A stretch of DNA of 64,000 nucleotides, from assembly GCF_963676685.1 (NCBI RefSeq), contig NC_092354.1:45384001-45448000 (forward strand). Reading direction: 5' to 3'. Both the position numbers and the translations under genes were made by a program. The notes beneath the pieces are model-generated. The model was not told the origin of the DNA, did not search any database, and saw nothing but the letters and a program-made list of their open reading frames with translations. The DNA is from Mytilus edulis (Eukaryota). Below are positions 15,446-62,101 of this stretch, one piece after another. How positions within the stretch are numbered: the stretch's first letter is position 1; each line of letters opens with the position of its first letter.

Positions 15446-15449
15446 AGTT

Positions 15450-25125: not shown

Positions 25126-25754
25126 AATGACAATAGGTTCGCAACAAATAGTGATCACCCAGGTCAACCAAACAATCGTAACACTAATGTATACCCTTCT
25201 ACTTTATACTAATATTGTTTTTTCTATTTTCCCAGATATTGATATGCTAAAAGACGTAACCACCTTTTCGCCGGCCCAGCTCTGGTACAAATTATGTAAT
25301 AACCATACTGATATAGATTATTTAGAAGCCACAAATTATTTAGCTGATATCAATTTTGATCCATTCAATTATTCATTTCTTCAAACTGACTGTTTAGAAA
25401 TTTTATTTAAAAATGAAGAGTTGGATATACCATATAATGATTTACCCCCCCCCCCCCCCTTTTATGAGTTTATATAGTTCCTATTATGAAATGTTACACA
25501 AGCAATACATCAGACAACTTAGATACTTTCGTTAAATTTAAATTCTGTCAATCGATAAGTATATTATATTTACTATTTATTCAAAGTTTCTAATATATTA
25601 ATTTTTCTTTACAATATCGCAAGAGTAAAACATTCATATAGAATCCCCCTTCATTTTTAGACTCTCCTCGAATTTCCTACCTTCAAGTGCGCGAATAAAC
25701 GCGAAATACTTGTATACAAATAAAATGAAATCATCGCTGCCATTGTGATATGTG

Positions 25755-26038
25755 ACTACTAACGGGGGTTCTTTACCCCCTACAATACCTATTATAACCC
25801 CTATATGTCGAGCCCCTAGATACACAACCTCCATCTTATATGGGGGATAACTATTATAACCCCTATATTTTAAACCCCTAGATACACAACATCCATATTA
25901 TATGGGGGATAATTAACCCCAACCTTTCCAACACCCATATAACATCCAATGATATGGGAGTTAAATAACTCCCCCGACTTTAACATTCAAATGTTAAGGA
26001 GGTTAAATGGATTTTAAATGTTATTCAAGTTTGATACA
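25755..26038 (+). repeat. Left TIR, containing a 62-bp tandem duplication
   Basis: Reverse complement of 47221-47440 apart from scattered mismatches and the extra unit (25789-25850 / 25851-25912). Confidence 0.95.
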
Positions 26039-26255
26039 TGGGGGTTATACATATTTAAATGTTATATTCTACAACATACACCATTTTAACATCCATTCAA
26101 TTCAACAGGATGATTTTGTATCCTATATTTATGTAATCTGTTATATGAAAACAAAATCACTCACCATGAACTGTAATAATATAAATAAACTTTATGTTCA
26201 TCATGAGGTTTATACATCTTTTCGATCACATAGGTAGCATTTAAAAGAAAACAGA

Positions 26256-27293
26256 ATGGACAGATATCAATGTGGTTGTTTTTCTGAAACATTTCATGAT
26301 ACTTTTACTAATACTGATCAAATTGAACACAACAACATTTGTGGACAACACCCATCACAAGAATCAGCTAAAGAAGGCCATGACAAGAAATTTAAAATGG
26401 AACAGGTTATAGGAAAAGCTCGAGAAATGTTAATGGCACAAATGGATTCTGATAATGTGGCGCATCATTTGGCAACAAGAAACGTCATAACCGTAGAAGA
26501 TAAAAACAAAGTGTTCAAGATTAAATCTAAATATATGAAAGCTGAGAGACTTTTGAAACGTGTTATTGAGTCTAACAATTCATCTCTTCACCATTTGAGG
26601 ATGGCTTTAATCAAGGCAGACCAGAAAGATCTATTGAAGTATATAAGTGAAAGAAATGAGCAATACGTAGAGTTTGATGATGATGATTTAACCAAAAGCT
26701 TGGAAGGAAGGTGTATGATTCCGTTACAAGGTGATTCGTACGTTGTTGCGAAAACTTACAACGATAAGATTCTCATAAACATTCGTAATTATCGAAAAGT
26801 AGCTGAGAAGAAATATCCCACTAAACAAGGTGTGTCGCTTACACTCTCAAGATGGCTAAAGTTGAAATCTCAAAAAGACTACATTAACAGTATTTTTCAA
26901 CTTGTAACAGATGGCGAATCGGTAGACGAAGAACTTATTCACTTAGGCGGAGGAGTGTACGTGACACTAAATTCAAAATATCCTAATGTAGACCTAAGAC
27001 ATTTCTGGAAACCTGAGGATTCGGATAAACCCGTTCCAACCAAACGTGGAATAGCATTAAATAAAATCAAATGGAACAAACTTTGTGATGTCATGACTAT
27101 TATGACTGACTTTGTTCCAGAACTTAATAATGCTATCGTGTGTGAGTATACTCACTACAATGAAATGGAACTTCAGAAATGTTCTGAATGTCATCCATTT
27201 AGTGACGAAGATGAAGAGGAAGTATCTCAAAATCAGGAGGGGGATTTTCAGATAATGAAACCCATTATCATGCATGATCATGAATCTGAATAA
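26256..27293 (+). CDS. CARD - PC4 - PC4 - Cys/His-motif protein
   Basis: aa ~48-132 follow the six-helix CARD pattern. aa ~153-212 (INIRNY...YPTKQGVSLTLSRW) and ~228-285 (VDLRHFW...PTKRGIALNKIKW) match PC4/Sub1. C-x3-H...C-x2-C at the end. Confidence 0.85.
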   Translation: MDRYQCGCFSETFHDTFTNTDQIEHNNICGQHPSQESAKEGHDKKFKMEQVIGKAREMLMAQMDSDNVAHHLATRNVITVEDKNKVFKIKSKYMKAERLLKRVIESNNSSLHHLRMALIKADQKDLLKYISERNEQYVEFDDDDLTKSLEGRCMIPLQGDSYVVAKTYNDKILINIRNYRKVAEKKYPTKQGVSLTLSRWLKLKSQKDYINSIFQLVTDGESVDEELIHLGGGVYVTLNSKYPNVDLRHFWKPEDSDKPVPTKRGIALNKIKWNKLCDVMTIMTDFVPELNNAIVCEYTHYNEMELQKCSECHPFSDEDEEEVSQNQEGDFQIMKPIIMHDHESE

Positions 27294-27693
27294 AATGGTG
27301 GTTTGACAATTTGTGAAAAGCAATGGAATTAGATGACACACTAATGACAATAATATTATGTTTAATATATTTTGCTGTTGTATTTATAAAATAAAATATA
27401 CATATATAACTATTAATGTGTTTGTGTTTTTAATTTAATTCGGTATAACTGTTGAATTATTTTGGAACAGGTAGCAATATAGTTGACGATACTCTTATTT
27501 TTAGAGAAGGGTTTTACACTTTTAGTTTTTGTTTTTGATCAATCAATGTTGATATGGTTTGTTTTTAAAGGGATTTTTATTTTCGAATTGGTACAGATTT
27601 GTAAAATTTTATAAATCATTGTTACACAGATTTAATGTTCATTTAAGTGGGTTATCATCAGAACGTTAATACACGTTTAAAACTATTGTAAAT

Positions 27694-28875
27694 TTGAACA
27701 CTATTACACCACAGAAAAACAAAATGACACAGAAGCAAAAGGAGAATTACGTTAAAAGAATATGGACAAACCCTAATCATCCTGGAGCTTTTGCTGGACC
27801 AGATAAATTATTAAAAGTTATACGTAGTGAAGGAAAATTTGACATAAGCAGAGCACATTTAAAAAAGATTTTAGCTAAAGAGGATACATATAGTGTTCAA
27901 AAACCTTCACGAAAAACATTTAGACGAAATAGAGTAGTTGTAGCAGGGTTGAATGCTCAATGGGACGGAGATTTAGCATCAATGGAAAATGTATCGAAAT
28001 ACAACTCAATGGAAAAATACAACTCGGATATTAAGTTTTTATTGATACTGATTGATATTTTTTCAAGATTTTTGATAGTTAAACCTCTAAAAGATAAAAA
28101 GAGTGACACAGTAACGTCTGCTTTAAAAGAGATTTTTAAAACGGGTAACAGGAGACCCAAAACTGTACGTTTTGATTTAGGCGGAGAATTTCAATCAAGT
28201 GTAAAAAAATATTTAAAGAAAGAAAAAATTAATGTATTTTACAAGCACAATTCTAAAATAAAAAGCAATTATGCAGAGAGAGTAATCAGAACGTTAAAAA
28301 ATCGTATTTATTCTTATTTTATGGAAAATCAAACATCTAAATACATAGATGTTCTTCAGAAATTGGTTAACAGTTACAACAACACACCTCATCAATCCTT
28401 GGGAGGGGCAACTCCTGCGTCTGTTACCAAAATAAATGAGGACGAAATAAGATATATACAATACCTAGTTAGAAAAAAAGCAAAATCTATAGAAGTAATA
28501 AAAAGGAAGAAGAAAAAACAAGTTTACAAATTCAAGATAGGAGATATTGTACGAATATCACAACTAAAAAGGGTATTTGAGAAAGGCTATCAAGAAAATT
28601 GGACATTGGAATATTTCAAAGTATCTAAAAGATTTAAAAGAGAAAACCAAGACATATATAAGTTGAAAGACACCCTTAATGACGACGTGAAAGGATCGTT
28701 CTATAGATACGAGGTACAGAAAATAGACCAATCACAGAAGAAACTGTACAAAATAGAAACTATTCTAAAAACCCGAAAGGTAGTAGGAAAAGAACAAGTA
28801 TTAGTGAAATGGTTGGGTTGGCCATCAAAATTTAATTCTTGGATTTTAAAGAAGTCGATCAAAGATATAAAATAA
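27694..28875 (+). CDS. Retroviral-like DDE integrase with chromodomain
   Basis: WDGDLASM, FDLGGEF, AERVIRTLK, YNNTPH and VLVKWLGWPSKFNSWI motifs. Confidence 0.95.
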   Translation: MNTITPQKNKMTQKQKENYVKRIWTNPNHPGAFAGPDKLLKVIRSEGKFDISRAHLKKILAKEDTYSVQKPSRKTFRRNRVVVAGLNAQWDGDLASMENVSKYNSMEKYNSDIKFLLILIDIFSRFLIVKPLKDKKSDTVTSALKEIFKTGNRRPKTVRFDLGGEFQSSVKKYLKKEKINVFYKHNSKIKSNYAERVIRTLKNRIYSYFMENQTSKYIDVLQKLVNSYNNTPHQSLGGATPASVTKINEDEIRYIQYLVRKKAKSIEVIKRKKKKQVYKFKIGDIVRISQLKRVFEKGYQENWTLEYFKVSKRFKRENQDIYKLKDTLNDDVKGSFYRYEVQKIDQSQKKLYKIETILKTRKVVGKEQVLVKWLGWPSKFNSWILKKSIKDIK

Positions 28876-28892
28876 TATGCTGTAATTGTTAG

Positions 28893-29339
28893 ATGTCATT
28901 CAAAGGCAAAATGAGTTTGATAATTGTTGTGTCTTCAGAAGATGGAAAAGGTTTATTTACCGATAACAAACCCTACGATTTCAGAGTTAAATTAAATCAA
29001 AGAATACGGTTGGATCATAATTGGGTGATCGCCATTACGGAATTTACTTCATCAGAACGTATCGATTCACATAAAAATCCTGAATTATTTATTTTTTCAG
29101 ACATATGCCAGAATAGTTTCATTGGAAATAACGAACATCCATTACTTAGAAGGACATATTTTGACAACGCAAAACAAAGAAACATTATTTACAATACTCC
29201 GTATTATATTCAGGTCAGACAGGGTGAAATACAACAAATTCATTTTTATATAAAGGATGACAAGGGACAAGATGCTTCATTTTTACAAGAGAAGGTGACC
29301 ATAACGCTTCATCTGAAAAAAAGATCCCCTTGTTCGTGA
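28893..29339 (+). CDS. Minor capsid protein (penton/PX), compact form
   Basis: FTDNKPYDFRVKL...WVIAITEF...LFIFSDIC...PLLR...IKDDKG...ITLHLKK pattern. Confidence 0.85.
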   Translation: MSFKGKMSLIIVVSSEDGKGLFTDNKPYDFRVKLNQRIRLDHNWVIAITEFTSSERIDSHKNPELFIFSDICQNSFIGNNEHPLLRRTYFDNAKQRNIIYNTPYYIQVRQGEIQQIHFYIKDDKGQDASFLQEKVTITLHLKKRSPCS

Positions 29340-29340
29340 A

Positions 29341-29838
29341 ATGAATAATTATCTAACAGATCCTCTCATCTGGAAAAGATTTCATAAAAACATGGAGGGG
29401 AATAAATTTAACGCATACAGTTACAGACGATTGAAAAGAAAAAATCAATTAGGACGGGGACTTCATGGTCGTTTTAGACATTCTTACATGATTCCTGTGA
29501 ATGTGAATGCAAACGACACCGAGACAAATTCCATCAGTACTACCATGGTATCACCTGTTGTTGCCTCAGAAGATAGGGCAACTTCAGAAATGAAGGACGT
29601 AAAAGAAAAGAAAAAAACCCATGTTAAGGTGTCGAGTATTATAAAAAGAAAAAACAAGAAAAAAAAGCTCAAAACGAAAAAGGAACGCAAACAATCAACA
29701 TCAAAAACAACCAAGAAGAGAACCAGACGAGCTTCAAAAAAGAAATTCAACAAAGACTATTACGATAACGTTTGGAGTTCAGTTTCTGTTAAAAAAAAAA
29801 AAGAAAACGATAAAATAAATTATGGCTTTTTTGAGTGA
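29341..29838 (+). CDS. Basic Lys/Arg-rich putative virion core protein
   Basis: Highly basic, has a QLGRG candidate protease site, and lies between penton and major capsid. Confidence 0.65.
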   Translation: MNNYLTDPLIWKRFHKNMEGNKFNAYSYRRLKRKNQLGRGLHGRFRHSYMIPVNVNANDTETNSISTTMVSPVVASEDRATSEMKDVKEKKKTHVKVSSIIKRKNKKKKLKTKKERKQSTSKTTKKRTRRASKKKFNKDYYDNVWSSVSVKKKKENDKINYGFFE

Positions 29839-31129
29839 AGATAATAAGGAAATTGGCCTTCCAATGGAACTTTCAATATTTGCTTCTCCCCCTAACCAAG
29901 TGGCCATAGATAAAATAACATATACAGAGGAAAGGCCAATATCTAATCTGATTAATGATTCCACACCCATTGAAATAGTAATCTCAGGAGCTGGTAATGA
30001 TTACATTGACTTGAGAAAAAGTCGTCTTTTTGTTAAATTACAAATTTTAAAAGAAGACGGATCTTACCTGCAACCAAAAGAAAAAACGGGAATTATTAAT
30101 TTACCGTTACAGAGTATGTTTTCACACATTGATGTATACATGAACAACAAATTAGTATCGGCTAATTCTAACAATTATCCATGGAAATCGTACTTCAAAG
30201 TTATACTGTCTTCGGGAAGCGATGAACAAAATTCTCAACTTCAAAGTCAGCTTTTTATGAAGGATGATGACCCTATGGATTCGTTGACATTAAATGCTGG
30301 ATATGTTAACAGATATGAATACACAAAAGAGTCTAGGACATTCGAATTAGAAAGTAATTTGATGGAAGATGCATTACTTTTGGATAAGTACTTGATTAGT
30401 GGCGTGGACATTTACATGAAACTGTTCCGTTCCAGTGCTCCTTTTTTACTGATGTCCGGAGAAGCAAAACCAAATTACAAGGTTAAAATATTAGACGTGT
30501 TCTATAGAACTGCTAGGGTTAAAGTGGATCCGGGTGTTATTTTGAATCATAGGCGTCAAATTCAAGAATCTCCAGCTAAATATTTGATTAACAGAAGTAA
30601 CGTAATACAAAATGTCATACCTCTAGGATCAACAGAATTTTACTGGGATTCTTTATTTCCGAAATCTCTACCTTCTAAAGTTGTGTTCGGACTTGTTCCT
30701 CAAAAGGCAATAAATGGTGATTATACGGCCAATCCTTTCAATTTTCAACACTTTAACATGTCATGTATTACTTTGAAAGTCAATGGTGTGGAAGTGTATG
30801 GATCACCTCTTAACATGGATTTTAGCAACAACAGAAATTACACAGCAGCATATGTAAGACTTTTTGAAATATGCGATAAATGGCAGAAGGATACAGGATT
30901 AAATATTTCTTTGAATGATTTTGGGAATGGTTATACGTTCATAGTGTTTTCCTTAGATCCTTCTGATTTCCAAGAAGATTTTCTCAATTTGGTAAAACAC
31001 GGAAATGCTCGATTAGAAATACGGTTTAGCGTACCCACAACAGAGGTTGTGAATTGCATGTGCTATTACCAATCGCAAGCCATTTTGACATGTGACGAGA
31101 CAAGAAATATAAACATAGTGGAACCATGA
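29822..31129 (+). CDS. Double jelly-roll major capsid protein (PY/hexon)
   Basis: ELSIFASPPNQ, YIDLRKSRLFVK, NNYPWKSY, NPFNFQHF and GNARLEIRF motifs; 435 aa, intact. Confidence 0.93.
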   Translation: MAFLSEDNKEIGLPMELSIFASPPNQVAIDKITYTEERPISNLINDSTPIEIVISGAGNDYIDLRKSRLFVKLQILKEDGSYLQPKEKTGIINLPLQSMFSHIDVYMNNKLVSANSNNYPWKSYFKVILSSGSDEQNSQLQSQLFMKDDDPMDSLTLNAGYVNRYEYTKESRTFELESNLMEDALLLDKYLISGVDIYMKLFRSSAPFLLMSGEAKPNYKVKILDVFYRTARVKVDPGVILNHRRQIQESPAKYLINRSNVIQNVIPLGSTEFYWDSLFPKSLPSKVVFGLVPQKAINGDYTANPFNFQHFNMSCITLKVNGVEVYGSPLNMDFSNNRNYTAAYVRLFEICDKWQKDTGLNISLNDFGNGYTFIVFSLDPSDFQEDFLNLVKHGNARLEIRFSVPTTEVVNCMCYYQSQAILTCDETRNINIVEP

Positions 31130-31563
31130 ATGCAAGAGAACTGATCGTTTTTTTAAAAGACTTTAAATGTTTAAATAAAGTATCTATCTGTATAAGTGAC
31201 ATTAATGGTTTGCCTGCTACCGTTGTGAATCACTACCCTCAACTATTTATTATCAATCCTGGAAAACATTGGTTGTGTGTATTTTTCTATGACTCTACAA
31301 AAGCTGAATATTTTGATAGTCTGGGAAAATGTGTAGAGTTTTATGGAACTAATTTAGCAAAGTTTATAAGCAACAACGCTAAAGATTGTTTTTCAATACA
31401 GAGACAATTACAGTCTAACACTTCAGATATTTGTGGACTTTATGTTGTATGTTTTGTAGTGATGAAAGTATGTTATCAATTTTCAATTTAAAATTTTAAT
31501 GATATGTTTACTGATAATGTATTTGAAAATGACCAATTCATTAAAATGTTTTTTTCTAAATAA
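31126..31563 (+). CDS. Adenain-like cysteine protease with a probable premature TAA at 31489-91
   Basis: GKHW / YFDSLG / LQ...CG catalytic motifs. The frame continues past the stop as NFNDMFTDNVFENDQFI to TAA at 31561-63. Confidence 0.88.
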
Positions 31564-31639
31564 ATATTAGATGTAAAAAAAAAAAAAAAGTTTTGTTCTT
31601 TTTACGAGGGGTCTTCTCTGATATGAATATAAAACTCAT

Positions 31640-32329
31640 ATGCGACGTATCGTCTTCATTTTAAACAAAGTCATGGAGAAGGAACACACTCTTCTTCCTT
31701 TTTCATCTCCAACCACAATATATATCTCTGGACCAACTCAAGCAGGTAAATCGATTTTTACTAAAAAACTTATAGAAAATGCTGACGTAATGTTTACCAA
31801 ACCACTGGAAAAAATTTTATATGCATATTCCGAATATCAACCATTATTTGACGACATTCAATCGTCCAACTTAATATTTCATGAAGGTCTGCCTGATAAA
31901 CAGAAAATAGAAGAATTTACTCAAGATACTCAACATTCGTTAATCGTACTGGACGATTTGATTTCTAAAGTAGTACAATCAGAGGAAGTTTTACATTTAT
32001 TCGCCGTCACTAGTCACCACAAAAAGGCATCAGTGGTCCTTATTTCACAATCTTTGTATCCTCCAGGTAAATACTCAAAAAGTATTTCCCTGAATTGTGC
32101 TAATTTTGTCTTGTTTCACAATCCTAGAGACATGCGTCAAATTGTAACGTTCGCATCACAAATACTTCCAGGAATGACTCGATATTTCTTAGATGCATTT
32201 TTGAAAATTACAAAACAGAAGTATGCATACATACTTATTGACCTCTCGCCTCATAGAGAAGACAGACAATACATGCTTAGAACGGGTATTTTTCCAGGTG
32301 ACACCTGTATAGTTTACAAACCTATATAA
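31640..32329 (+). CDS. A32/FtsK-like genome packaging ATPase
   Basis: Walker A GPTQAGKS, Walker B LIVLDD, SHH and NPRD motifs. Confidence 0.95.
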   Translation: MRRIVFILNKVMEKEHTLLPFSSPTTIYISGPTQAGKSIFTKKLIENADVMFTKPLEKILYAYSEYQPLFDDIQSSNLIFHEGLPDKQKIEEFTQDTQHSLIVLDDLISKVVQSEEVLHLFAVTSHHKKASVVLISQSLYPPGKYSKSISLNCANFVLFHNPRDMRQIVTFASQILPGMTRYFLDAFLKITKQKYAYILIDLSPHREDRQYMLRTGIFPGDTCIVYKPI

Positions 32330-32331
32330 AA

Positions 32332-32676
32332 ATGCATTCTTGTTCGTACGATCATTTGGTGATAATGAGCAGGCGAATGAGGTCAAATGCTGTGTTTCTG
32401 AAGTTTTTATACGAAGCTGGTACAAACCAACGAGTTGCAATCTTATCAAATCTGACTAAACCACAAATCAGTGTTCTATCTGAAGTAGCTTTAAATATTT
32501 ATAAAGGAGTATTCCCCAACAAACAAAAATACGTCAAGTCATTAAAACCATATAAATCCATTGTGTACCAATTGGGAACAAAATCAGTAGGAGTGCGAAA
32601 AAAGAAACAATTATTGATTCGTCATAATAAACTAATTCCTAGTTTGTTAAGACCTGTTATGGATTTTTTGCAATGA
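32332..32676 (+). CDS. Conserved small basic Polinton protein (PW-like)
   Basis: QRVAIL...LSEVALNIYKG...KKKQLL pattern; follows the ATPase. Confidence 0.7.
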   Translation: MHSCSYDHLVIMSRRMRSNAVFLKFLYEAGTNQRVAILSNLTKPQISVLSEVALNIYKGVFPNKQKYVKSLKPYKSIVYQLGTKSVGVRKKKQLLIRHNKLIPSLLRPVMDFLQ

Positions 32677-32954
32677 TGGCAAAAGAACTAGTTTTGTTAT
32701 CTAAAAGAAAATATGATGAACTTTTAAAATCTGCGTCAGAGGATAAACAAGACAAACCTACAGGAGAAATAATGGAAAACGAACATGGCGAGAAACCGCA
32801 AATTTCTAAACCCATAGAGCAAGTTCCAAACTCTGACCCAGCTGAAATGGGACGGTTCGTTGAGAAGATTAACGACGATGCGAGTGGTAAACCAGGAATT
32901 CTAGATCAACCTCCTAAGAAAATGAAAAGAAAAAATATGAAAAAAAAAACTTAA
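32673..32954 (+). CDS. Short protein resembling a PZ-like N-terminus
   Basis: MAKELVLLSKRKYDELLK; ATGA overlap with the previous ORF; may be shortened by an A-run slip at its end. Confidence 0.5.
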   Translation: MMAKELVLLSKRKYDELLKSASEDKQDKPTGEIMENEHGEKPQISKPIEQVPNSDPAEMGRFVEKINDDASGKPGILDQPPKKMKRKNMKKKT

Positions 32955-33033
32955 AATGGATATTATATTAACTTTTAATTATGTAACTTCTCATTTGTAC
33001 AATAAAAATCTTCAATAAAGGATTAATGTTAAG

Positions 33034-36000
33034 TCATTTGTTGCAACAGTAACCGAAAGGTAAAGTAGTTAAGTCATTTAACAATCTTCTCTTTGTATAT
33101 ACCATTCTGTACTCCTTTTCCTCAATCCTGTTGTATAATTTCCTTTTACATGCAAGTCGGGAAATTTTACGCGGATTGGTAGTCTTTATTGTTTTGATAG
33201 TTTTATTCACCACTACGTCACAAATAGATGAAAAATTTATTAGATCTGAATTCATCTTATTGTCTAACGAAAAACCTCTCACTTTACACTTTTCATTGCC
33301 CGATGCCAATCTGTAGGCATAATTCTTAGGTCCTCCGGCCACAAAATGTGTGATGTGTTTATCCTCAGGTGAAATTTCATTTGTTAATTGTCCTAAGTAA
33401 TTGCCAATAGGAAGTGTTTTTGAGATAATTTTATCTTTATCACAAAAGATGATCGAGTCTGTGTCTACATACAATGTGTTGTGACCCACTTGTTCCATAA
33501 CGTTGTAGAGCTTGATTCTGGCCCAACAGGTAGTAAAAGATGCTATGAAGATGTTGGTTTTAACGTCTATGGGGATAAAAGGGGTCTCGTGTACATGTTC
33601 TATTTGTATGAAATCTTTACTAATGATATGGAAATCTTTTACATCCTTCCGGGGATCTGAGAGTAGCTGAAAGAACTTATCTCCCTCGTGTTCGTGGAAA
33701 AACTCTGTTTGCCTCATATTTAAACGTTGACCAAACTTGCCCCAAAAACTATTTAAACATATTTTTGCCAAACTACGGAGTCCTGGATTCTTTTTTATAT
33801 TATCATAATCTAAATGTATTCCCTCGTGTTTTGCGTAATCAGCTATATATTCCATCTTTTCTTGATCTGTTTTACACTCCTGTGGGAAACCTGATGCTTC
33901 CTGTTTAAATTTCAAAAATAGATTGACGTAGGCATCAAAAAGGCCTCCCACACCCGTAAAAGGATCATGCTTTTTGAATTCTTTAAAATGATACACCTCG
34001 TATATTTTAAGGATTTCGTATCCTTTGGAAAGAGCCAGCTCCACTTCAGGAGTACACCATGTACCAACAATGACTCTCTCGTCATTGGTGCATGTGCAGT
34101 CGTTTTGGTTTTCATCATCGGCACACTTTTTGCAAAGTGGAAACTTTAATTTTCCATTGGAAACGTATGGTAAAACGGGATGAAAAAGACGTCTGTGGGG
34201 TAAAATCTTTACTTTAACCACCCCAAAATACTTGGAAATATCTTGAAAATTCGATGTTATGATAACTGGATGTCCTATGGGGTATTTAGCATACTTGTTG
34301 ACGCTAGGATACAAGCTGAAAAATAAAAGAAGGAAATTATCAACTAAGTAACCAAACAATGTAACATAAAAGAGTTCTGAATATACAAATGAATCAAAAA
34401 CAGTACTTATTACATTATTTTATATTACCTTGTGAAATCATAATATTCAATTGTCTCTCCTGGTTCTGCGCATTCATGGTACAGTTTAATTCCGTTAGTC
34501 CTTCCGCCATAAAAGCTATCCCTTACATTTAATCGGTCTGTAATATCTAATGTAGAAACTAATTCTCTCATTTGGTCATCTGTCGACATTAATTGATGAA
34601 ATTCGTGCTCCCAGATGCACACATACTCGTATCCTAGTCGTATCAGTTCCCTTTCTTTCTGTTTGGTCATAATATATAGTTCGGCCATCGAATGTTTTGT
34701 CTTCGGATGAGTTGTCTTTGTTCTATCATGGGGAAAGCAGGAGGGACAACCATGGAAACAACAACCTGAAATCATTAATGATAATAAGAGGGTTTACATC
34801 AATCAATGCGCCGCATTACTTTAACAATCGTTATTCAGTTGTAATAGGTGGGAATCGTTTTGATCGTCTTGAAAGAAATCGATAAATAATAAGAAAAAAT
34901 ATAATAAATTTATAAATATATAAACAATATAATAAATTTATAAATATATAAACAATATAATAAATTTATAAATATATAAACAATATAATAAATTTATAAA
35001 TAATATTGTCGCCGCCGCCTCCTATGCCCTTAATTATTTACTCACCTAAAAATTCGTATGCCGTTTTCTTTGGAGAATGGACATAACCATCTAGTCTAAA
35101 ATTCGTGCCTGGTACTTTGTGTTCTCCTCGACCATTTAGTGCGTGTTGTATGTGAATTGGTTTTCCTGACCGTCTACTACGCTCCATTGTCCATTCCAAC
35201 CATTGGATTGACACTTTACTGAAATTGTCTCTTGATACGTAACCCTCTGACGGAACTACTGCAATGGGACTTTTAACGAAAACTGTTCTTCCAATTGTGT
35301 ACGCATTAGACGCATCTATCGTTTCCTTTAATACCCATTCACCGTCAGGTAATTGCACTTGAAGTGAACCGTTCACAAATTTCGAGGGACACTTGAGATT
35401 TGTGTTCTGGGTTAAATCCGTCACACACGTTTCATATTCTTCCTCTAGGAACAGTTGCCTGTAGATGGCTTGACAGACAGAAGCAATCGTGATGTAATTA
35501 AACGGATCTATACCTTCGGCGTGCGTTATTATTTCGCCTTTTTCGTTAGTGTCTTTTACAGATGTCACGTCAATCATAATTTTACGAAACTCCATACATC
35601 CTCGCCTCAAAATATCTACATCTGATACGCAATAATTGTACATCTCCGACTGAAAGTCAAATATTTCATTTTCTTTTGAACGGTACCAATTCCAAAATAA
35701 TTGGGCTTCTTCTTCTCCCATATAATCGACTCCATAATATGATGCAGCCGGATAAGGTCCTTTATATGATTGGTGTTCTTGGGTGTTGAAGAGGTGTGGG
35801 AAGTGACCCTTCTGAAGCTCCTGAAGACCAAAGCATTGTGGAATCTTCGATAACTTCATATTGATAAAGTTGATAGAATCGAGAAATGTAAGGTCTAAGT
35901 TTTTCGAGACATGCATATAGACAATCTTTGAGCCATCGAAGATGATTTTATCGGGTTTTACACTGTGATGATCTATGAGTGCATTGAGTAGGGGGTAGTT

Positions 36001-38601
36001 GTCGAAACCTTTGGCGTTGTGTGCTATGAGAACCGTGTTTTTGTAATGGGGGGTCATGATGTGAGAGCAGAATTCGTAAGGTACGTTGTTACCTCTAAAC
36101 ACCCTCTGTCTGTAACCGCAACCATCTTTACAAGGTAAAATCCTTTTGTTCTTTTTTACTATTCTACAGTTTTCACAGCGACTCCCACAAACGTCACACT
36201 TAGAGTTTATCGTTAAATCATCGTTTTCACAAAGGGTACAAGTAGATTGCAAAACAGCAAAATTTACCTTGTGCTCATTTAGTCCACACCAAGACTGATG
36301 ACAGTTGATGCAAATTTTACAAGAGTTACATCTCGTTTTCATAGCACATTTCGTTTTACAAGGTTGGCTGGGTACGTAACCATTAGAACATTGTTCTTCA
36401 TATCTACATCTGACCTCATAACAGTTCGTACACATTTTGCATTTTTTACACCTGTCTGTTGTCGAGCATTGTTTCTCGCACGGTTCGCCGAGCAAATGAC
36501 CTTCACTACAGACCATTTGTTCATTTTGTGTTGTTTCAAAGTCGTAAAAAAAATATTTCCTCGGTTCCTTTTTACTAGAATTCCAAATAGATTTCCGCTG
36601 ATAACACAAATGGTCTCCTAATTGATATTGGAAACAATTTTTACATTTCCATTCCCCGCATCTATGTTGTTCGGGTGCTCGTTTGTTTCTTTCTAGGACT
36701 TTTTTACAAGTTTCACACTGGTAAAACCTTTCGCACATTGATTTGTCGCAATCATGGCCTCTGATGGTTTTAAGGGAGTTGTGTCTTTTATAACACGCTT
36801 CACTACGACATGTTCGGTGGCAGTCTGAACAAGTAACTTGATCGTTACTGATCTTACATTGATGACTACCGCAAACGTCACATGTTTCGCTACAGGAGTG
36901 CCTCCCCTTGTTTTTATACGGGGTTAAACAGTGCGAACAGAAATAGCCAAAACCAAAATAACCATTTATACTCCCTATGGCATCGTAATGTCCATTTCCA
37001 TCTGCATCACCCGTAAGGTACAGGTAAATGTTTTTACGTTGGGAGTTATTAGCCACACGATAAAATTTGTTGCCTAATTTTGAGGATAACACCAAAATAT
37101 TGAGGTCCAATAGGTTTTCAAAGCTATGAATGTCTCTAATGCTTAGGGGTTTGTCAGTTGGAAGATTTGCTTCTTTACATAAGGTTAATGCCATGGTTTT
37201 ACTGTAAGATTTATTATTCACAGCGGAATCACTCACGTGTTTGTAATAACTTTTGGTAGTCATGCCATGTTTCAAGACTTTTTGAAAAGTGTTCATGTTG
37301 GGGTCATCGTCTTTTGTGATCTCTCTCCATTTGTTCAGGGGAACGACTTCGCAGAGCTTTAAAAAACATCTACCAATCGCTGTTGCCATACACATTTCGT
37401 CGTTATTCGATACCTGTAATAATGACTTTTTTAGGGCAATTGAATTACGGGTCCCTTTGAGTCTTGTTATGGGTATCGTACCACTCCCACTAGGTACTGC
37501 AATGCTCCCTATTGTGACTTGCATAGCTGTATCCAAGGGTAAATTTTCGTCGGAATTTAGGACGTTTTCTACTGCATCCATGACCCTTTGCGAGTTAATG
37601 TTGGACCAGTTATCCAATGGTACGACTATCGAATTATTCAATTCGGGATGTGAAATGATAACTCTTCCGAGGTCATAGTCATTTCCTCTGGCCCTACCCA
37701 GTACGTCATCGAACATACCCCCAAGTTCGTTTTGAAGATTGCGCATTTTTTTATTTTTCCAGGTATCTTTGAATTTTACTTTGTATGTAGTCTCACGGGC
37801 TAAATTTTTGGAGAAGGTTTTCTGTCCCGACATTTGAAATAAATAAGGTAAATCTTCGTTGTCGTTACCACTCCCCCTTTGTTCGATGTCATCCATAGTC
37901 AATGTGATATTAGGGTCGATACTGTTTTGAAGGGACGTGTGTACACCTTGAATAACACTCCCACCCTCTTCAAAGTTGTAGGGGGTAGCCATGTAATTTG
38001 TCGTTATAGCATCCATGTCCATTACGTTCGCATCCACCCTTTGATTCAAGTCATCCATGGTATATACTATATTTTGGTTCAAACCATATTGAAAGTGTGT
38101 TTGTGATTGAGGGTCCATATATTGACTAGCAGTAGCTCTGTAAGTGATGTGGGAGTGACTTGTTGATGGCATATTTATGTCTTTGATATTTTGAATAACA
38201 TTAAAGTCGTTTAAAGCATCCAAATCGAAATTAATGGCTAGGTCATCTGAATTTGAAAATGTATTGATGTCATCTATAATTTGGTGAAATTCCAAATGAT
38301 CTTTCAATTCCGATGATAAGTTGAATTTAATATAACACTTTTGACATGTCAACAAAAATGATAGTCTGTCTAAAACTTGGGAGTTGTTTAAAAGGCAGTT
38401 ATCTGTAGCCCAACTTATTAAACTGTCAGCATCTGTAAATGTGTTCAATGTATATGTCAAATTGAATGACAGAAAGTGTCTGATCCTATTTTGTATCAAA
38501 GGATGATTTATTAGGTCATTGTCTAATGCCCATTGCTGCAAGTCCTCTAAAGATGTAAAATCCTTGACAATACTGTTCAAACTTGGTGATTTATGCTTCA
38601 T
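33034..38601 (-). CDS. polB: Protein-primed family B DNA polymerase, 3 exons (38601-35046, 34765-34429, 34315-33034; 1724 aa)
   Basis: GT-AG splicing restores AYEFLG/CCFHGCP and YYDFTS/LYP. ExoI YDFET, ExoII HNAKGFD, ExoIII YCVSDV, KICLNSFWGKFGQ and YVDTDS all present. Confidence 0.95.
34899..35003. repeat. 28-bp AT-rich tandem repeat in polB intron 1
   Basis: AATATAATAAATTTATAAATATATAAAC repeated about 3.7 times. Confidence 0.9.
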
Positions 38602-38847
38602 TGTTTTTGGTTTTGTCCATTTACTGAAAAATATTTGTTATTATTTGGTTTTATTTCTTTGGTATTTGTATTTGCTTGATTCTGTTAAGATAAAAAAAAA
38701 AGTGATACCACTATTCTAAATTTTTAGTTTGATTTTACTAAAAGCAAAAATATTTGAAATGTTTACTTACCTTACATTTCATATGTTTCCATTCAAATAA
38801 AATCTTGTTGATTTTACTTGGTTTTATAACCCCTAAAATCATGTCAT

Positions 38848-39338
38848 AATGTTAAGGTTTAAGTATTCTGTGTCATGACCTTGGATACAGTCCAATGAGT
38901 TTTACATAATAAAATATTGTTGTATAATTGTACTGTTTGTATGAGGTAATTTTAAGGTTCAATAATTCTGTGTCATGACCTTGGATACAATCCCATGAGT
39001 TTTACATAAAATATTGTTGTATAGTGGTACTGTTTGTATGAGGTAATGTTAAGGTTCAATTATTCTGTGTTGTGACTTTGGATACAGTCCAATGAGTTTT
39101 ACATAACAAAATATTTGTATAGTGATACTGTATGAGATAATGTTAAGGTGCAATTAGTCTATCATGTCATCATGACATTGGATACAGTCCAATGAGTTTT
39201 ACATCATAAAATATTGTTGTATAGTGGTACTGTTTGTATTAGGTAATGTTAAGGTTCAATTATTCTGTGTCATGACCTTGGATATAGTCCAATGAGTTTT
39301 ACATAATAAAATATTGTTGTATAGTGGTACTCTTTGTC
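38848..39338. repeat. Five ~100-bp tandem repeats upstream of polB
   Basis: Units start at ~38848, 38948, 39045, 39139 and 39245; core TTGGATACAGTCCAATGAGTTTTACAT. Confidence 0.9.
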
Positions 39339-39765
39339 ACACATTTTTTTTTCTTAATTATAGATAAATGAAGACATAATGTTCATAATGGTTTTAATCA
39401 AAATATATACATTCATCATGAAACAAACATACATATTAAAATGCTTTTGGTTATGGAATTTCAGGTAAAGGAATGCAATATATTTTAACAAATATCACAT
39501 TTATCTTCAAAACCTACAATATTAAAATAACTGTTCATAATTTTGTGTGTTTTTTTTTAATTTCAAAATCTTATATTTAAAGAATATTTAATAAACAATA
39601 ACCAAGTAACTTCTTATCAAACTAAATTAATTATTTTCCCCCTATGTTTCTTTTTATAAAACAAGTATTTGTTTAACAAAGCAATTACAGACATAGTGAT
39701 ATCAGAATTTCTTGGAAATTGTATGGCCATATTAGTCTTGATATATTTGGGATGAACACAAATAA

Positions 39766-40246
39766 ATATCACATTACCTCCATGTTGTACACAACTAATT
39801 TATAAAATAAAACTTCCTCAATAATAACTAAGTATTATTATTATTTGAGATCATTTCTTTAAAAAACAACGTATGAGTAAAAATCACCTGAGTAACATTT
39901 TAGCACCAATTCTTTAACACACAAAAAAAAAAAAATATCACATAACCTCCATGTGGTACACAACTAATGATTGTATAAAATAAAACTTCCTCAACAATAA
40001 CTAAGTATTATTATTATTTTGAGATCATTTCTTTAAAAAAACAATGTATGAGTAAAAATCACCTGAGTATAACACACAAAAAAAAAATATCACATAACCT
40101 CCATGTGGTACACAACTAATGATTGTATAAAATAAAACTTCCTCAACAATAACTAAGTATTATTATTATTTTGAGATCATTTCTTTAAAAAAACAATGTA
40201 TGAGTAAAAATCACCTGAGTAACATTTTAACACCAATTCTTTAACA
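39766..40246. repeat. Three ~150-170-bp tandem repeats
   Basis: ATATCACAT(T/A)ACCTCCATGT unit at ~39766, 39935 and 40087. Confidence 0.9.
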
Positions 40247-41345
40247 ATAATAGCACCTTGACTAGTTTATTATTTTTTATGAAGAACAATGACATATGTC
40301 ATTAAAAATATCAGTTTAAATATAAAAGTCACAACAGTTATGGCAATAATATCAAGTAAAATATATTCATATAAAAAAACAGTGATGAGGTAATACAAAT
40401 CAAATACCTTTTAAAAAAAAATAACAAGTGTCAACAATAAAAAATTAACAACCACTGGTGTAATTGAGTTTTTAAATAATTTCATACATGAGCATAAAAT
40501 TTTTTAAACATCAATACATAAAACATGTATACCAACAACAAAAAATACTAAACTACTCTATATACATCTTTAATATGAGCATCATATTCTGCAATGGATA
40601 AAAAAAAAAAAAAATCTAAATGAAATTTACACATGTAAATTAACCCTTTTATGAAAGATGTAAGTATATTTCTTTAGGTTGAAAAGTTTAACATTTTAGA
40701 TTTAAAACTAAAACATGTGTATTATCCAAGTGAAGTCAAATAATAATATACATTCAAAGGCAAAACCAAATACACCCTTTCACCATAAAGCACTTTTAAA
40801 ATTAGGGAGACACCAAATCCATAGTTAAAAAAGTATGTACCATTGAGTGTTTTGGATCTATTGTTTTTTAATAATAAGAATCCTCCCATAGATATAAAAA
40901 ACATATTATATAACTAAAGAAATTGGTGTATGTATCTTCACTTAGATACTAAAAATAAATGCATTCACCTTACTATTCCCCCCTTTATGAAAAACATCAC
41001 CCACTCTCCAACATAAAAAATAAAGGCTCAAATACATTGACCTAAATAAAAAGGATTAGGCCTAAAAATCAAAACAAGCAAAAATCTACTAGCTAATGAG
41101 TGTATTTCTAATATGTACAGACTAATTGTTTTCAATTCTTTTATTTCAGGTGAGAAAATGTATTCAAATTTCATATGAGAGGGTAAATAGTTTATTTTTA
41201 AAAATTTCAAGTGTTCAAAATATACCATTAAATTTTCAATTAAAGAAGAGATTATTCTTTTAAAAAAAATTTGTGTTTATAAATAATTAAATAAAAAATT
41301 ACCAGAGTTCAACAATTAAGGAAAATATAACATGATTAAAAATGT

Positions 41346-41834
41346 TTACAAGGCTGCTTCTAACTGTTTCTTCTTGTTGCGGGTTCTGATGGCCACTGGT
41401 TCATTCAGTTCTACCATTTCCATGGGTGGAGCAGACGGTTCGGGTGATGAGTCTCTGTTTTCAAAAAAAGTAGTAGGTGAATCTGATGTTGGTAAGGGTA
41501 TGGTGTGTTCAATTGGTGTAGACTCAAATGAAAAAACAGGAAGTCTGTCTATGGAATAGTCGGGTGTTGATGTCGGAGGTGGAGTGAGTGATGGCGGGAC
41601 AGTAGAGGAAATCATACTCAAAAAAGAGGTCTGTGTTTGAGATATCTGGTGTCTGTCAGCTGTTATGGTGGTGTTGTCTAGCGGTTGGTGTAATGGCAAA
41701 TATGTAGTGTTTCGTTTCAGTTGTAGTATCCATTTCAGGACAGACAAGAATGTAAACATCCCAAAAATTCCACACCCTGCCCAGAATGCTGTAAAACAAA
41801 TTTATATAAATATAAATTAAACATATCATCAGAC

Positions 41835-41870
<36 letters not shown>

Positions 41871-43629
41871 AATTTTATACATGTCTGTAAAATCATATCT
41901 CATATATGTTTACTCCATTGTTTTACTAGTACTATTATAAATGAGAAAAAGTATTCAGTTATCTCCCTTTATTGATGCATGCAGGGGAGATAATTAAATC
42001 CCTTTAAGATATAGGGGGTCATAAGTTTAGATGTTTGAGAGTGACAACAAAACAGGTTCAAGATATCCATTGTGTTCCAGCAATCAAAGTTCTTCTGTAT
42101 TTAAAGAGACATAACTTAAGTAACTATAGATGCATACCTATCATAGCAGTTTCCATGGTGCTTGACATCTTGTCACCATATTTCATTATTGTTTTGTCCT
42201 GTACTGAAATAATAAAAAAAAAATATTATAAATAAATCATTACTATGTTGTGTAGGGCCCTTTCAAAAAAAAAAACCTGCTCAATAATCAAAATGTTCCA
42301 TTTACAGAGTTACTGGGATAAGTCCTCAATTGGCAAGAAACCTCATGTTAAAATTTCAAAGTTATATTAAAAACTGATGTGTCCACAGACACTGACAACA
42401 CTAACACAGACATAGACTGTCCCACATACCATAATACAACCATTTTATTTTCAGTCATATAAAAACCTGACCCCCAACCATTGTAGAGAAACCATTTGGA
42501 GAAATGTCATGCTCTGTACAGTATAAAGTTCTATATAATTTGATAAGAGTAGGCATCTTGGTAAAATTTACTGCCCCCAACATTTTACCATCAATCCCCC
42601 TTTTAAAAAAAAAAAACATATTGTACTGTATATAGCTGAAGTATTACTCATTAATAATTGTATAATAAAATCTTACTTTGATTTGTAGTCAGTGTTGTAG
42701 ACTTTTTCTGTTTGTTAGTCATTTCCAATTGAGAATTCTGTAAAACATTGTCTGGTACTACAAAATAAATGAAAAAAAAATTAATAAAACATGTTTAATT
42801 CCTTCCTTAAAAAAAAAACCACACACAAAAACAAAAACAAACTGGCAGTATCTTACTTAAGTATTGAATATTAATAATCATACTTAAATAATAAATCTTA
42901 CCATGAACTGTAGTTATTTCCTGTTTCCTAGTTGTTTTTTCTTCCTCTGGTAAAATATTGTCTGGTACTGTAAAATAAATGAAAAAAAAAATCTAATACT
43001 GGAACTGATTGAAAACTTGTTACAATCTCACATGACATTGAAAGAGAAATTTGATATTTCATACCTAGTTTTAAAATAAATTTGTTGGAAATGTTCCCAT
43101 GGAATTATAATTTTGATCACTCACACTTACTGCAAAAATCAACTACAAAATTGTTTAATTATGCACATACAGAATACATTCCATGGGACATGAAGATCAG
43201 ATTTATTTATCCTTCAACTTTATAATAATTCCTTGTCAGGAACTGGTCGGATGCCCTTAGAGTTATTCCCCCTTTTTTTTAATTTTCGAAATAAGGCAAA
43301 CTGTTGAAATCGTTAGAATGGTTGGACTTTAAGACATAAATCTTGTGAGGGTAATCATAAAACTTACCACATTCTATCTCATTGCAAAGCCAATTGCATA
43401 ATTTGTTGAACACGTGTACCACTGTTGGCGGTTGCTCTTGTGCCTTAAGAAAATTGATAGTACAATTACAACTTTCCGACTGAATTTCAATAATTCTGAC
43501 GTTTTGAAGAATGTTTATTTCTGTACTACAGAAGCAGTTGGCAATTGCCGTTTCATATTTACAATCTATCTGTCCTTCTGCGTTTAAAACTAACAATAAC
43601 ACAAGAAAATGTACGATCCAAAATGCCAT
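41346..43629 (-). CDS. Five-exon type I membrane protein, 305 aa (exons 43629-43368, 42967-42902, 42757-42677, 42203-42138, 41788-41346)
   Basis: All four introns are GT-AG and phase 1, and the joined 918 nt is open. Signal peptide, Cys-rich domain, Thr-rich stalk, TM AMIAFWAGCGIFGMFTFLSVLKWIL, and S/T/P tail with PSAPP. Confidence 0.85.
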
Positions 43630-44903
43630 GTTTGTTTTCTAATGTACCAATGAGAACGTGATGGGTTGTAAACAACAGAATAAAAACATCGGAATCTTCA
43701 TAAAAAATATAATATATAGCAAACAATATAAGTATATTTTATAAACAAATCAATTTTCATCATATTTTAACACACATAATTAACGTCGTAAGAGAGAAAA
43801 CTGAAAAAATTAACTGTGGTAATTACATAACTCCTTACGGTTCACTAAATATATATGTTGGAATGGATATGTTATTGTTTCCGGAACGTTACATAAGATA
43901 TTTAATTTTCCGATCATTTTCACACGTTAATAACATGATTAAAATTACACAGTGAAAACTATTCTTAGATAATGATCTTTTAGTAATGTGCTAATTGAAA
44001 TGAGGTTACCAAAGATAATTAATGGTTTCACAGTTAACTGTAAGCAGTGGCATTTGGAAAGGGTAGTTTATATAATAATGTTTTACTGTTACATATTTTC
44101 TCACATTAACAAAACATTTTAAAATAATAATAATCCTTTAGCAAGATGTTATTCAAATTTAATGAAATGTGTAACATCCTATTACAAAAGATAATTAACG
44201 GTTTCCCAGAGTGTAAACAGGGTACCCGACGGATGGCATTTGGAATGGGTTATTTATATAATAAATCTTTGCTATTATGCATATAGTCTAGTTTTAAAAA
44301 GTCTCATTTATTATGTAACATTTGTATACATAATAAGTGTAAAAATCAGTTAAACTTTATTCAGAGAAAGGAATTTGAGAAAAATGTAAGTACAATTTGT
44401 TGAGTTATTTTTCATTTTAACGCATATTCTTTATATATGAGATAAAATATTTGTTATCTTCATCTTAACTTAAATTTATGAATTTTTGTTGTTAGAAACC
44501 TTACAAAATAAACTTGTTTCTATAATTCTAATAAATTAATTAAACTTGAATTGGTTAATTCTACTACATATGTAAGTGATTTAATGTTGGTTTTCTGGTT
44601 TTAATCAGTCCAAATGTGACACGGGTAAACCCTAAATTCTAAATTAAATAATAAAAAAATGATATTGAATTTGTGTAAAGGAATTTAGTGTAAATATGTC
44701 CGTAAGTTAGGGCTGTTCCTGATTTTGGAGATGATATTTTACTACGAATAACAAAACCAGAAAACTGTTAAATTTAATGCGTGATCCTTATTCTCCTTAA
44801 TTTTGTTCAGAGATTTCTGAAAAATGTCCACATTAAGACCCTCTTTAATATTTGTGTATATTTATTAAATACATACGTAAAGTTTGTTAGTATGTTTCAT
44901 ATA

Positions 44904-45122
44904 TGTTTCTCGTTTCTCGTTTTGTAAATAGATTAGACCTTTGGTTTTTCTGTTTGAATTATGTTACACTGGTTATTTTGGGGCCCTTTATAGCTTACTG
45001 TTCGGTGTAAGCTTTTGCTTCGTGTTGAAGGCCGTACTTTGACCTATAACTGTTTAACTTTTTATGCATTGTTACTTGGATGGAGAGTTGCCTCATTGGT
45101 ACTCATACCGCATCTTCTTATT
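44904..45122. repeat. Host interspersed repeat inserted in the Maverick
   Basis: GGAGAGTTGCCTCATTGGTACTCATACCGCATCTTC is the approximate reverse complement of GAAGATGTGGT.TGAGTGC...TGAGACAACTCTCCAT at ~7427 and ~63586. Confidence 0.7.
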
Positions 45123-45532
45123 TATACTAATATTGTAATGGTTAAATATGTTTTTTAAATATATTTTTGTTTTAATTATTAGATTAAAATGGAATCTGTC
45201 ATAAAACAGGAAGTACCAGTTAGAACCCCTGAACAGACCAGGTATATATCAGTAAGGTTGTTAGCAAGACTATGTTGCCTTCATATTCACAATATAATCA
45301 ATTATTTTGATAAGATATCATTTAAACATCCTTTGAATGAGTTTACACTGTCCATGTACTTGTTTGTTGTCTTCGTGTGTATTATACGTATTTCTTGTTG
45401 CGTCCTTTGTTTGCATGTGTCCGAATTTTGCAATAGTCTATGAATTTATGATTTGTTTTTATTATCCTTTTGATTTGTTGCCGTGGTATTCGTTTTCCAT
45501 TGTATTAAATTTATCTTCATTTATCTTAGCTA

Positions 45533-45741
45533 CACTGTAAAAATTGTGCTTAGAACCTAAACACGTTTAGGAAAATGTTTAGAAGCTATACACATAAATG
45601 TCTGTTGTGTCCCCCTTCTAAACATGTTTAGAATTTCAACATGTAATGCCCCACATGCTTAGAGCCTAAACATGTAACCAATTGTATAACATGAAATGTG
45701 TATAGAAAAGTGTTTAGGCCCTAAACACAATTTTTACAGTG
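45533..45741. mobile_element. 209-bp MITE with CACTG termini flanked by TA (EnSpm/CACTA-like)
   Basis: TA|CACTGTAAAAATTGTG ... CACAATTTTTACAGTG|TA. Confidence 0.85.
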
Positions 45742-46492
45742 TATATACTGCTAAAATTTATATATTTTATAATCTTTACATAAAAGTAATACATCTAATT
45801 TATGCTTTTGTAGATCTACTAATGTGCCTTTGGAACCTGTGCAACAACAGCCACCTAATAGAAATACCCAGAACATATTAGTATATTTTTTCTTTTAAAA
45901 GCCTATTTTGTTTTAAAATAATAGAACTCCAATCATTAGTAATTGTATATATCATAATTTATTATTTTAATTTTGTGCTGTAAAAAATAAATTTTATCTA
46001 TATTTTTTAGAGCTTCAGAATTTGAGATGGTGGAACATTTAAACAACATAATGAGTACAAAAATCGAAGATTTAGCCATCAAGATAGCATACAATGCCCA
46101 CATATTGACAATACAAAAGAGAAAGTTGAATGAGGAAATTAGTTTTAAAAAACATTTAAAAATGAGAAAAAGAATGCTATTAGAAAGAAGAACAAATGGC
46201 ATATAATTTGATCTTTGGAAATGGACACTAAAGAACTTTAAATACAATAAAAGAGTTGTATGTTATGATTGTTTTCTTTAATCTTTTATTACACAAAAAG
46301 TACCCTTATGGTGAGACAAACTCATAATGAGCAAATGTATGGACAGTACCGGAATGCAGTTACCCTCTTGCCTTCCCTCTCTTACGGCCATTGGATTTGA
46401 GTATATACTTTATATTAAGAAAAACACATATATTACATAATAGCTCATACATTTATTTTGATATTTTCCAAATACATAAGTAAGTCCTGTTA

Positions 46493-46945
46493 TTAACTTC
46501 TGTAATAAATAACTCTTGTTATATACTGTATTATAGACCTCAAATAGTCCCATTGTCTTTGTGATAAGGATATTCCTTTAATAGTAGGTTTATTGTTCAA
46601 AAATTGACGAATGTCTATAATTGTTCTTTTGTTGTATTCACACACAGTTAACATAAATTCACCAGGTAGACGGAAATGTTTAATATAAGAACACAATGAT
46701 TGGTTAAAAGTAAGGTTCTGTTCATTTATATCATAGTTGGAAACATTCATGTTATGCTTTGACATGTTTGATGACAAATATAAACTACCAGTTATCCATA
46801 GGGTAGATGCTGTAAATATGAATAGCACTATAACACCTGTCCATTTCAGTACATTTATGTGAATTTCATATTGATGGTACATATTCATTAAACTTGATGT
46901 GACACTATTTTGTGGTGATATTGAATTGATTCTGGTATGAGACAT
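46493..46945 (-). CDS. TM-anchored PC4-domain protein (150 aa from the first ATG)
   Basis: TM WTGVIVLFIFTASTLWITGSLYL, sequons NMS/NVS/NLT/NQS, and IIDIRQFLNNKPTIKGISLSQRQWDYL PC4 motif. Confidence 0.8.
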   Translation of the reverse strand: MSHTRINSISPQNSVTSSLMNMYHQYEIHINVLKWTGVIVLFIFTASTLWITGSLYLSSNMSKHNMNVSNYDINEQNLTFNQSLCSYIKHFRLPGEFMLTVCEYNKRTIIDIRQFLNNKPTIKGISLSQRQWDYLRSIIQYITRVIYYRS

Positions 46946-47220
46946 GGTTAATTTAAATAGTAAATCCTTTCTGTTAGAATTCAAAAATATATATAACCTT
47001 ATAGAGTTTAAACACACTTTTATAAAATATTGTTGAATTGTCAGTTATATATTTGTATTCCTGATTGGTTAAACAGAAACACCTCCCCCTTAACTTTAAA
47101 TTGGTAAAAAAAAAAAAAATTGGAGTAAATATACATAAGAGAAAATCTTATCATTATATATTCTGGATGTAACAAATGGGACATGCCCCTCAGTACAAAA
47201 CTTAGATGTTGGATATAAGT

Positions 47221-47440
47221 GTGTCAAACTTGTATATCATTTAAAATCAATTTAACCTCCTTGACATTTGAATGTTAAAGTCTGGGGGTTATTGAACTCC
47301 CATATCATTGGATGTTATGTGGGTGTTTGAAAGGTTGGGGTTAATTATCCCCCATATAAGATGGAGGTTGTGTATCTAGGGGCTCAACATATAGGGGTTA
47401 TAATAGATATTGTAGGGGGTAAAGAACCCCCGTTAGTAGT
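47221..47440 (-). repeat. Right TIR
   Basis: Ends ...AAAGAACCCCCGTTAGTAGT, complementary to the left end. Confidence 0.95.
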
Positions 47441-47446
47441 TATGTG

Positions 47447-61869: not shown

Positions 61870-62101
61870 TTATTTTGTATGACGCCATATGGATACTTAA
61901 AACATGACATCATTTGGTTATTTTGTCTTTTCTCATATGAAGTCAAAGTTAAAAACGTCATTGTGATAATTAAGAAATGACGTCATATGATTGTGCGGCA
62001 ATGTATAATGTGACGTCATTATGTGATGTGACGTCTTTGGTGTTATTATTTGTCACGTGATGTGACGTCATTATGGGAGTCAAGGAACCCCCCTTAGTAG
62101 T
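61870..62101. mobile_element. Orphan Maverick-type right terminus
   Basis: GAACCCCCCTTAGTAGT matches the Maverick end GAACCCCCGTTAGTAGT at 16/17; preceded by repeated TGACGTCA. Confidence 0.55.

Follow-up and report, generated by a model that had tools for sequence, protein, structure and literature searches.

A mussel Maverick with ACTACT ends and the lineage that shares them

The element and its insertion site

The window considered here, a 64,000-nucleotide stretch of the Mytilus edulis genome (G000:C11:45384001-45448000 in the M. edulis assembly coordinates used throughout), contains a 21,686-bp Maverick/Polinton element at 25755..47440 whose termini read ACTACT...AGTAGT, an end type that, on comparison of family copies and their protein trees, marks a lineage. 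The element is 99.4% identical to a second copy. At the left junction, GA and the target-site duplication TATGTG (25749..25754) are followed by ACTACTAACGGGGG starting at 25755, and at the right junction CCCCCGTTAGTAGT ends at 47440 and is followed by the other TATGTG (47441..47446) and TATAG. The end 14-mer occurs only at the two ends of the element, against an expectation of 0 from 100 shuffles. The left terminal inverted repeat (25755..26038, plus strand) includes a 62-bp tandem duplication at 25785-25912, and is 91-97% complementary, across three arms, to the right repeat (47220..47440, minus strand).

An empty paralog of the target, GA-TATGTG-TATAG, lies outside the element at 20842..20854. 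Searching the genome with the left flank yielded 15 matches; 12 of them, this site included, were fetched, and the other paralogs of the target were empty in 11 of 11 cases. These junctions and empty sites agree with the end positions and the TATGTG duplication claimed by the first-pass annotation of this DNA, and its description of a complete Maverick likewise stands, with both inverted repeats, the duplication and the core gene set located. The target is a duplicated unit neighboured by an open reading frame (ORF) for a retroviral-type protease, and may by inference be the remnant of a long terminal repeat retrotransposon.

The second copy (G000:C11:44922606-44944296) differs by 48 substitutions and 16 gaps, and has unrelated flanks with the duplication AACGAC; inside that exact duplication its left end holds three ACT units and its right end two. 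Fourteen of 24 listed public sequencing runs, from six studies, hold 96% of the words sampled from the element, although one of these runs may be its source. In two of four runs checked (X1 and X15) a contig matches from exactly 25755 and is joined to a flank that differs from those in the assembly, and insertion sites therefore differ between samples. A recent insertion, as first proposed, is thus supported both by the near identity to a differently flanked copy and by these junctions.

Several further observations concern this region. Runs X1 and X17 join positions 27565 and 33619 through 26 other letters, describing a deletion derivative without integrase, capsid, protease and ATPase. One low-depth contig from X15, a run merely guessed to be RNA, shows seven A-to-G differences at 25791-25827 in the left inverted repeat that resemble editing of double-stranded RNA. 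Elsewhere in the window, a fragment of another Maverick (an integrase with chromodomain and the next ORF) lies at 14996-16334 on the minus strand within a retroelement-like region, and positions 1-5600 hold a higher-order satellite with units of about 270-280 bp and a 3,428-bp exact duplication.

Genes of the element and predicted introns in its polymerase

The element is a true Maverick, with genes for integrase, capsid, ATPase, protease and protein-primed polymerase. The integrase (27724..28875, plus strand, 383 residues) is of the retroviral DDE type with a C-terminal chromodomain; its rve match (1.6e-06) falls just below the curated cut-off and is accompanied by the chromodomain match. Residues D83, D151 and E185 are invariant across 60 homologues, and a profile of the protein matches solved integrases at 3e-09. 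The double jelly-roll (DJR) major capsid protein (29822..31129, plus strand, 435 residues) has an Atlas feature score of 0.99 to a protein cluster, and homologues named F54H12.2-like; 30% of the members of that cluster carry the DJR-like domain PF21738, while a sequence search against solved structures gave no match.

An adenovirus-type cysteine protease (31126..31491, plus strand) is cut short by an in-frame stop at residue 122 in a frame that otherwise extends to 31563, the second copy having 145 residues. The A32-like packaging ATPase (31640..32329, plus strand, 229 residues) is 35-45% identical to the ATPases of other families. Pfam matches for these two proteins are weak and below cut-off (PF04665 at 6.7e-4 for the ATPase, and PF00770 at 6e-4 for the protease of a sister subfamily), and the gene order is equal in all families compared.

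Smaller ORFs complete the plus-strand module. A 345-residue ORF at 26256..27293 combines PC4 (PF02229, 7.8e-17) and CARD (PF00619, 7.1e-06) domains. A 148-residue ORF at 28893..29339 is a likely minor capsid protein by position and size only; it has no Pfam match, and the equivalent place is occupied in other families. By position, a basic 165-residue ORF (29341..29838), whose frame differs from that of the second copy, is PW-like, a 114-residue ORF (32332..32676) is PZ-like, and a 93-residue ORF (32673..32954), with a 2-base indel relative to the second copy, is PM-like. All four labels follow position and what we take to be the usual Maverick gene order. On the minus strand are a 116-residue accessory ORF with a hydrophobic N-terminus and no Pfam match (43279..43629) and a second PC4-domain ORF of 150 residues (46493..46945; PF02229, 2.4e-09).

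The polymerase, a protein-primed polymerase B on the minus strand, is read in three pieces. Exon 1 (35046..38601) matches PF03175 over positions 7-196 (4.3e-20) and exon 3 (33034..34315) over positions 240-366 (6.4e-19), both above cut-off; between them lies exon 2 (34429..34765), whose length of 337 bp is equal in the sister subfamily. The two predicted introns, both GT...AG, measure 280 bp (34766..35045) and 113 bp (34316..34428), and break the motifs YEFxGCxxHGC and DFTSLYP, respectively. Among seven relatives, the first motif is unbroken in two and the second in all seven. At both sites GT...AG gaps are also present in the sister subfamily, measuring 159 and 86 bp, with 41-48% identity in the introns against 72-77% in the exons, and the donor site of intron 1 is common to two metagenome relatives, both without intron 2. 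No splice joints were found in RNA reads, coverage being near zero at the introns and the run X15 only guessed to be RNA. Host splicing of both introns would be needed for the polymerase mRNA, and the core genes would accordingly not be intron-free as predicted here. The excerpts of PMC8097293 report no introns in intact vertebrate Mavericks, and those of PMC12166617 describe introners in dinoflagellate elements. A separate AGTAGAGTAGT-ended family (G000:C7:57868905-57887428 and C14:555808-576601) has one polymerase intron two bases off the intron 1 site and another elsewhere.

The view that nearly all core ORFs are intact therefore needs qualification in three respects: the premature stop in the protease, the division of the polymerase by two introns, and the 1-2-base indels that two small ORFs carry relative to the second copy, differences that decay or a faulty assembly could explain.

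The ACT lineage and a proposed origin of its ends

Candidate ACT elements were found by a genome pattern search and then judged by their flanks and end pairing; the number of ACTACTAWMGGGGG matches genome-wide (16, against 19 for a reversed control) is in itself no evidence. Four two-ended ACT elements were recovered, namely those of the window and the second copy together with C12:73484696-73524272 and C4:48223280-48241212, and all four, each at an unrelated site, are flanked by exact 6-bp duplications. Five further single ACT ends have unrelated flanks, two of the five being duplicated. Among 24 elements tabulated with both ends, 3 begin ACT, 20 AG (18 AGTAGT and 2 AGTAGA, 17 of the 20 with exact duplications) and 1 ACACAA. 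The lineage is also coherent in its proteins. All five ACT rows fall on a single branch of the integrase tree (100/100) and likewise of the capsid tree (100 in the Shimodaira-Hasegawa-like approximate likelihood ratio test, SH-aLRT), and four ACT rows do so in the polymerase tree (SH-aLRT 100), the integrase tree having been built by a careful method and the other two by a quick one. The ACT end is common to subfamilies 73-79% identical in integrase, while AG is the start of the nearest relatives whose ends were located. Named integrase homologues above 55% identity all come from Mytilus, in three species, with oysters next at about 50%. An end altered throughout a lineage had been surmised from the single element, with a tabulation of termini as its check; the other copies do begin ACT and not AG. 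The trees are midpoint-rooted, and AG is taken as the starting state of the change because it is both the common and the published one.

Other loci add to the inventory. A left-end fragment of 1,048 bp lies at C11:23820374. Ends were not located in the fetched regions at C6:87.25M, C10:22.73M and C1:53.0M, which hold degraded members of the clade (capsid or integrase), nor in those at C1:25.3M, C11:5.38M, C11:60.68M and C1:60.87M. C14:42236475 was dropped as an ACT element, a Maverick protein being absent from the adjacent 20 kb. Viral contigs gave no capsid relatives and 33 end-motif matches, none with a Maverick protein; metagenome contigs gave seven loci, with no ends found in the four examined. 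The degraded element at C4:48223280-48241212 has a different gene order, with the ATPase gene and the end of the polymerase to the left of integrase and capsid. A lone ACT-type end (window position 62101, minus strand; G000:C11:79154178) runs into TGACGTCA repeats; it has a sibling elsewhere that matches from exactly its first base, and neither a partner end nor a Maverick gene was found. Among AG-type elements, an AGTAGT family (G000:C1:72447105 and C4:12050185, offset about 390) has telomeric TAACCC units close to both ends, seven on the left and two on the right, and an 11-kb family (G000:C12:57744368-57755716 and C3:30565345-30576929) has inverted repeats of about 2 kb.

A 5'-AC start is not confined to this lineage. 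A distant, recently spread Maverick family begins ACACAA, with 41 exact end matches genome-wide against 0 for the control; its ends read ACACAAT...ATTGTGT, with exact 6-bp duplications in 14 of 14 tested pairs (30 of the 41 ends fetched), and its copy at G000:C10:67067112-67083236 has a polymerase that is intron-free at both motifs. The integrase of this family is 37% identical to that of the ACT element. In the approximately unbiased (AU) test the integrase rejects a single ACT and ACACAA clade (p=0.029) and the polymerase does not (p=0.25), with long branches involved; because the integrase rejects it, position 2 would have become C more than once. The generalization that Polintons typically start AG, quoted as a rule in PMC6839031, thus holds as a tendency, since 20 of the 21 non-ACT elements with located ends start AG, but not as a definition: the element begins AC, as does the ACACAA family, and PMC8097293 lists, besides (AGT)2 and (AG)3, the motif (AC)3A in Monopterus albus. 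No report of (ACT)2 Maverick ends was found in the Polinton literature searched by title and abstract, although Repbase or Dfam may have catalogued them, and they go unmentioned in the excerpts of papers on nematodes, adintoviruses, Ginger, IS481EU, GingerRoot, an insect pangenome and entomopoxviruses. The ACT ends are therefore a motif that we have not found described, within the already described pattern of AC starts, on a known kind of element, and they leave what Mavericks are unchanged.

AGTAGT and ACTACT differ by G-to-C at bases 2 and 5, with bases 1, 3, 4 and 6 kept. By analogy with adenovirus, where initiation occurs at bases 4-6 and is followed by a three-base jump (PMC5175343), we lean towards an origin of the ACT end from AGTAGT by one G-to-C change at base 5 that jumping-back copied to base 2. 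The polymerase would start on the terminal protein opposite template bases 4-6, making a trinucleotide that would jump back three bases; because bases 1-3 would thus always copy bases 4-6, a single change at base 5 would give both differences. Pairing of the inverted repeats, or conversion of one by the other, would carry the change to the opposite end. The element's own integrase would join the new GT-3' end with its 6-bp stagger unchanged, its main requirement being the terminal A...T, with either G or C accepted beside it. Every end type seen (AGT, AG, ACACAA and the AC of PMC8097293) retains a short repeat and begins with A, and so there is no sign of a changed priming nucleotide. The additional ACT at the end of the second copy is what a repeated jump would give; such an extra triplet occurs in one of four ACT insertions, against 0/14, 0/9 and 0/14 in three other families.

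Several points weigh against this origin. The extra ACT was seen only once and could be an assembly error. The AGTAGA start of one AG family, with two copies, would be lost under a strict three-base jump. Differences between the left and right repeats at positions 34 and 55 are kept in both copies, and because they persist the ends are evidently not homogenized in each cycle and transfer to the other end would be rare. The polymerase AU result is compatible with one AC origin, the rooting of the trees is by midpoint, and the fixed integrase changes R197S and R224Q could mean a changed specificity. The excerpts of PMC8097293 treat jumping-back in Mavericks as an expectation only, and our proposal extends the adenovirus scheme to them on the evidence of sequences.

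The integrase changes bear on the most serious alternative. We consider it somewhat probable that the integrase simply tolerates the altered end, the first and last bases (A...T) being the same in ACT and AG ends. A real switch of specificity accompanying the end change, along the lines of the altered integrase or terminal-protein recognition inferred in the first-pass annotation, is possible but rather doubtful; the ACT enzyme would recognize G at the place beside the joined 3' end where other enzymes recognize C, which would stop the lineages mobilizing each other. The end is fixed throughout the ACT lineage, and among 120 database homologues, whose own ends are not part of the comparison, Arg197 is present in 98 of 104 distant and none of 16 close ones and Arg224 in 83 of 104 and none of 16, respectively; the ACACAA-family integrase also lacks both arginines, and residue 197 lies 12 residues past the catalytic glutamate inside a stretch that aligns to foamy-virus integrase. 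However, at about 0.5 changes per column the ACT lineage sits on a long stem, so that fixed differences, including the five diagnostic columns separating ACT from AG integrases, are expected regardless; the residues 4 and 7 past the catalytic glutamate show no such separation, and serine at 181 is present in AG families too. A bolder version seems to us unlikely. In it the second base of the end unit would be a two-letter code, either G or C; jumping-back copying would have flipped it repeatedly, each time in a single step, and the integrase would have followed by losing the two conserved arginines, so that AG and AC lineages of one genome could not cross-mobilize and the extra triplet would be a fossil jump.

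The reading of the ends as the reverse complement of the usual hexamer fared worse. AGTAGT does give ACTACT on reverse complementation, as an inversion or a re-cut end-to-end junction would require, but a re-cut junction would leave an internal AGTAGT, whereas none is present and the ACT ends continue AACGG, ATAGG or similar; moreover, the AC dinucleotide type is also a G-to-C change, where reverse complementation would give CT. We regard inversion as very improbable and the likeness of the two hexamers as a coincidence with no mechanistic content. A misreading of the ends or a misassembly of the locus, for which the position of the target within a duplicated repeat might speak, is refuted by the independent sites with exact duplications, the empty paralogs, and the contigs from two other samples that match from exactly 25755 with different flanks.

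Comparison with known systems

Searches that require AG ends, as in the first pass described in PMC8097293, would miss both the ACT lineage and the larger ACACAA family. The recently mobile AGT, AGA, ACT and ACA lineages that coexist in one genome amount to natural pairs of enzyme and end, with which the end requirements of integrase and polymerase could be asked about, as could jumping-back, so far assumed.

As in adenovirus (PMC5175343), the element has a twice-repeated terminal trinucleotide on what would be a linear protein-primed genome, but adenovirus ends are CATCAT, it has no integrase, and jumping-back is only expected for Mavericks. The polymerase is like that of the alpha-type adintovirus/polinton class (Starrett et al., PMC8502044) in its PF03175 match and its company of integrase, capsid, ATPase and adenain-type protease, but an N-terminal OTU domain was not detected in it by Pfam. 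The Monopterus albus Mavericks, (AC)3A//T(GT)3 in PMC8097293, share the 5'-AC start and GT-3' end, and the 5' motif ACACAA in three matched cells of a table in that paper equals the six bases of the mussel ACACAA family; theirs is a dinucleotide unit on 14 defective copies, in contrast to the trinucleotide unit of the recently mobile mussel element. With vertebrate Mavericks in general (Barreat and Katzourakis 2021, PMC8097293), the element shares the 6-bp duplication, terminal inverted repeats, a short unit beginning with A that is repeated at the ends, an integrase-capsid-protease-ATPase module facing the polymerase, and a size inside their range of 12.7-24.6 kb. It departs from them in its two predicted polymerase introns and in its ends, theirs being (AGT)2//(ACT)2 or (AG)3//(CT)3 and those of the mussel (ACT)2//(AGT)2, outside the three motifs given in the text of that paper.

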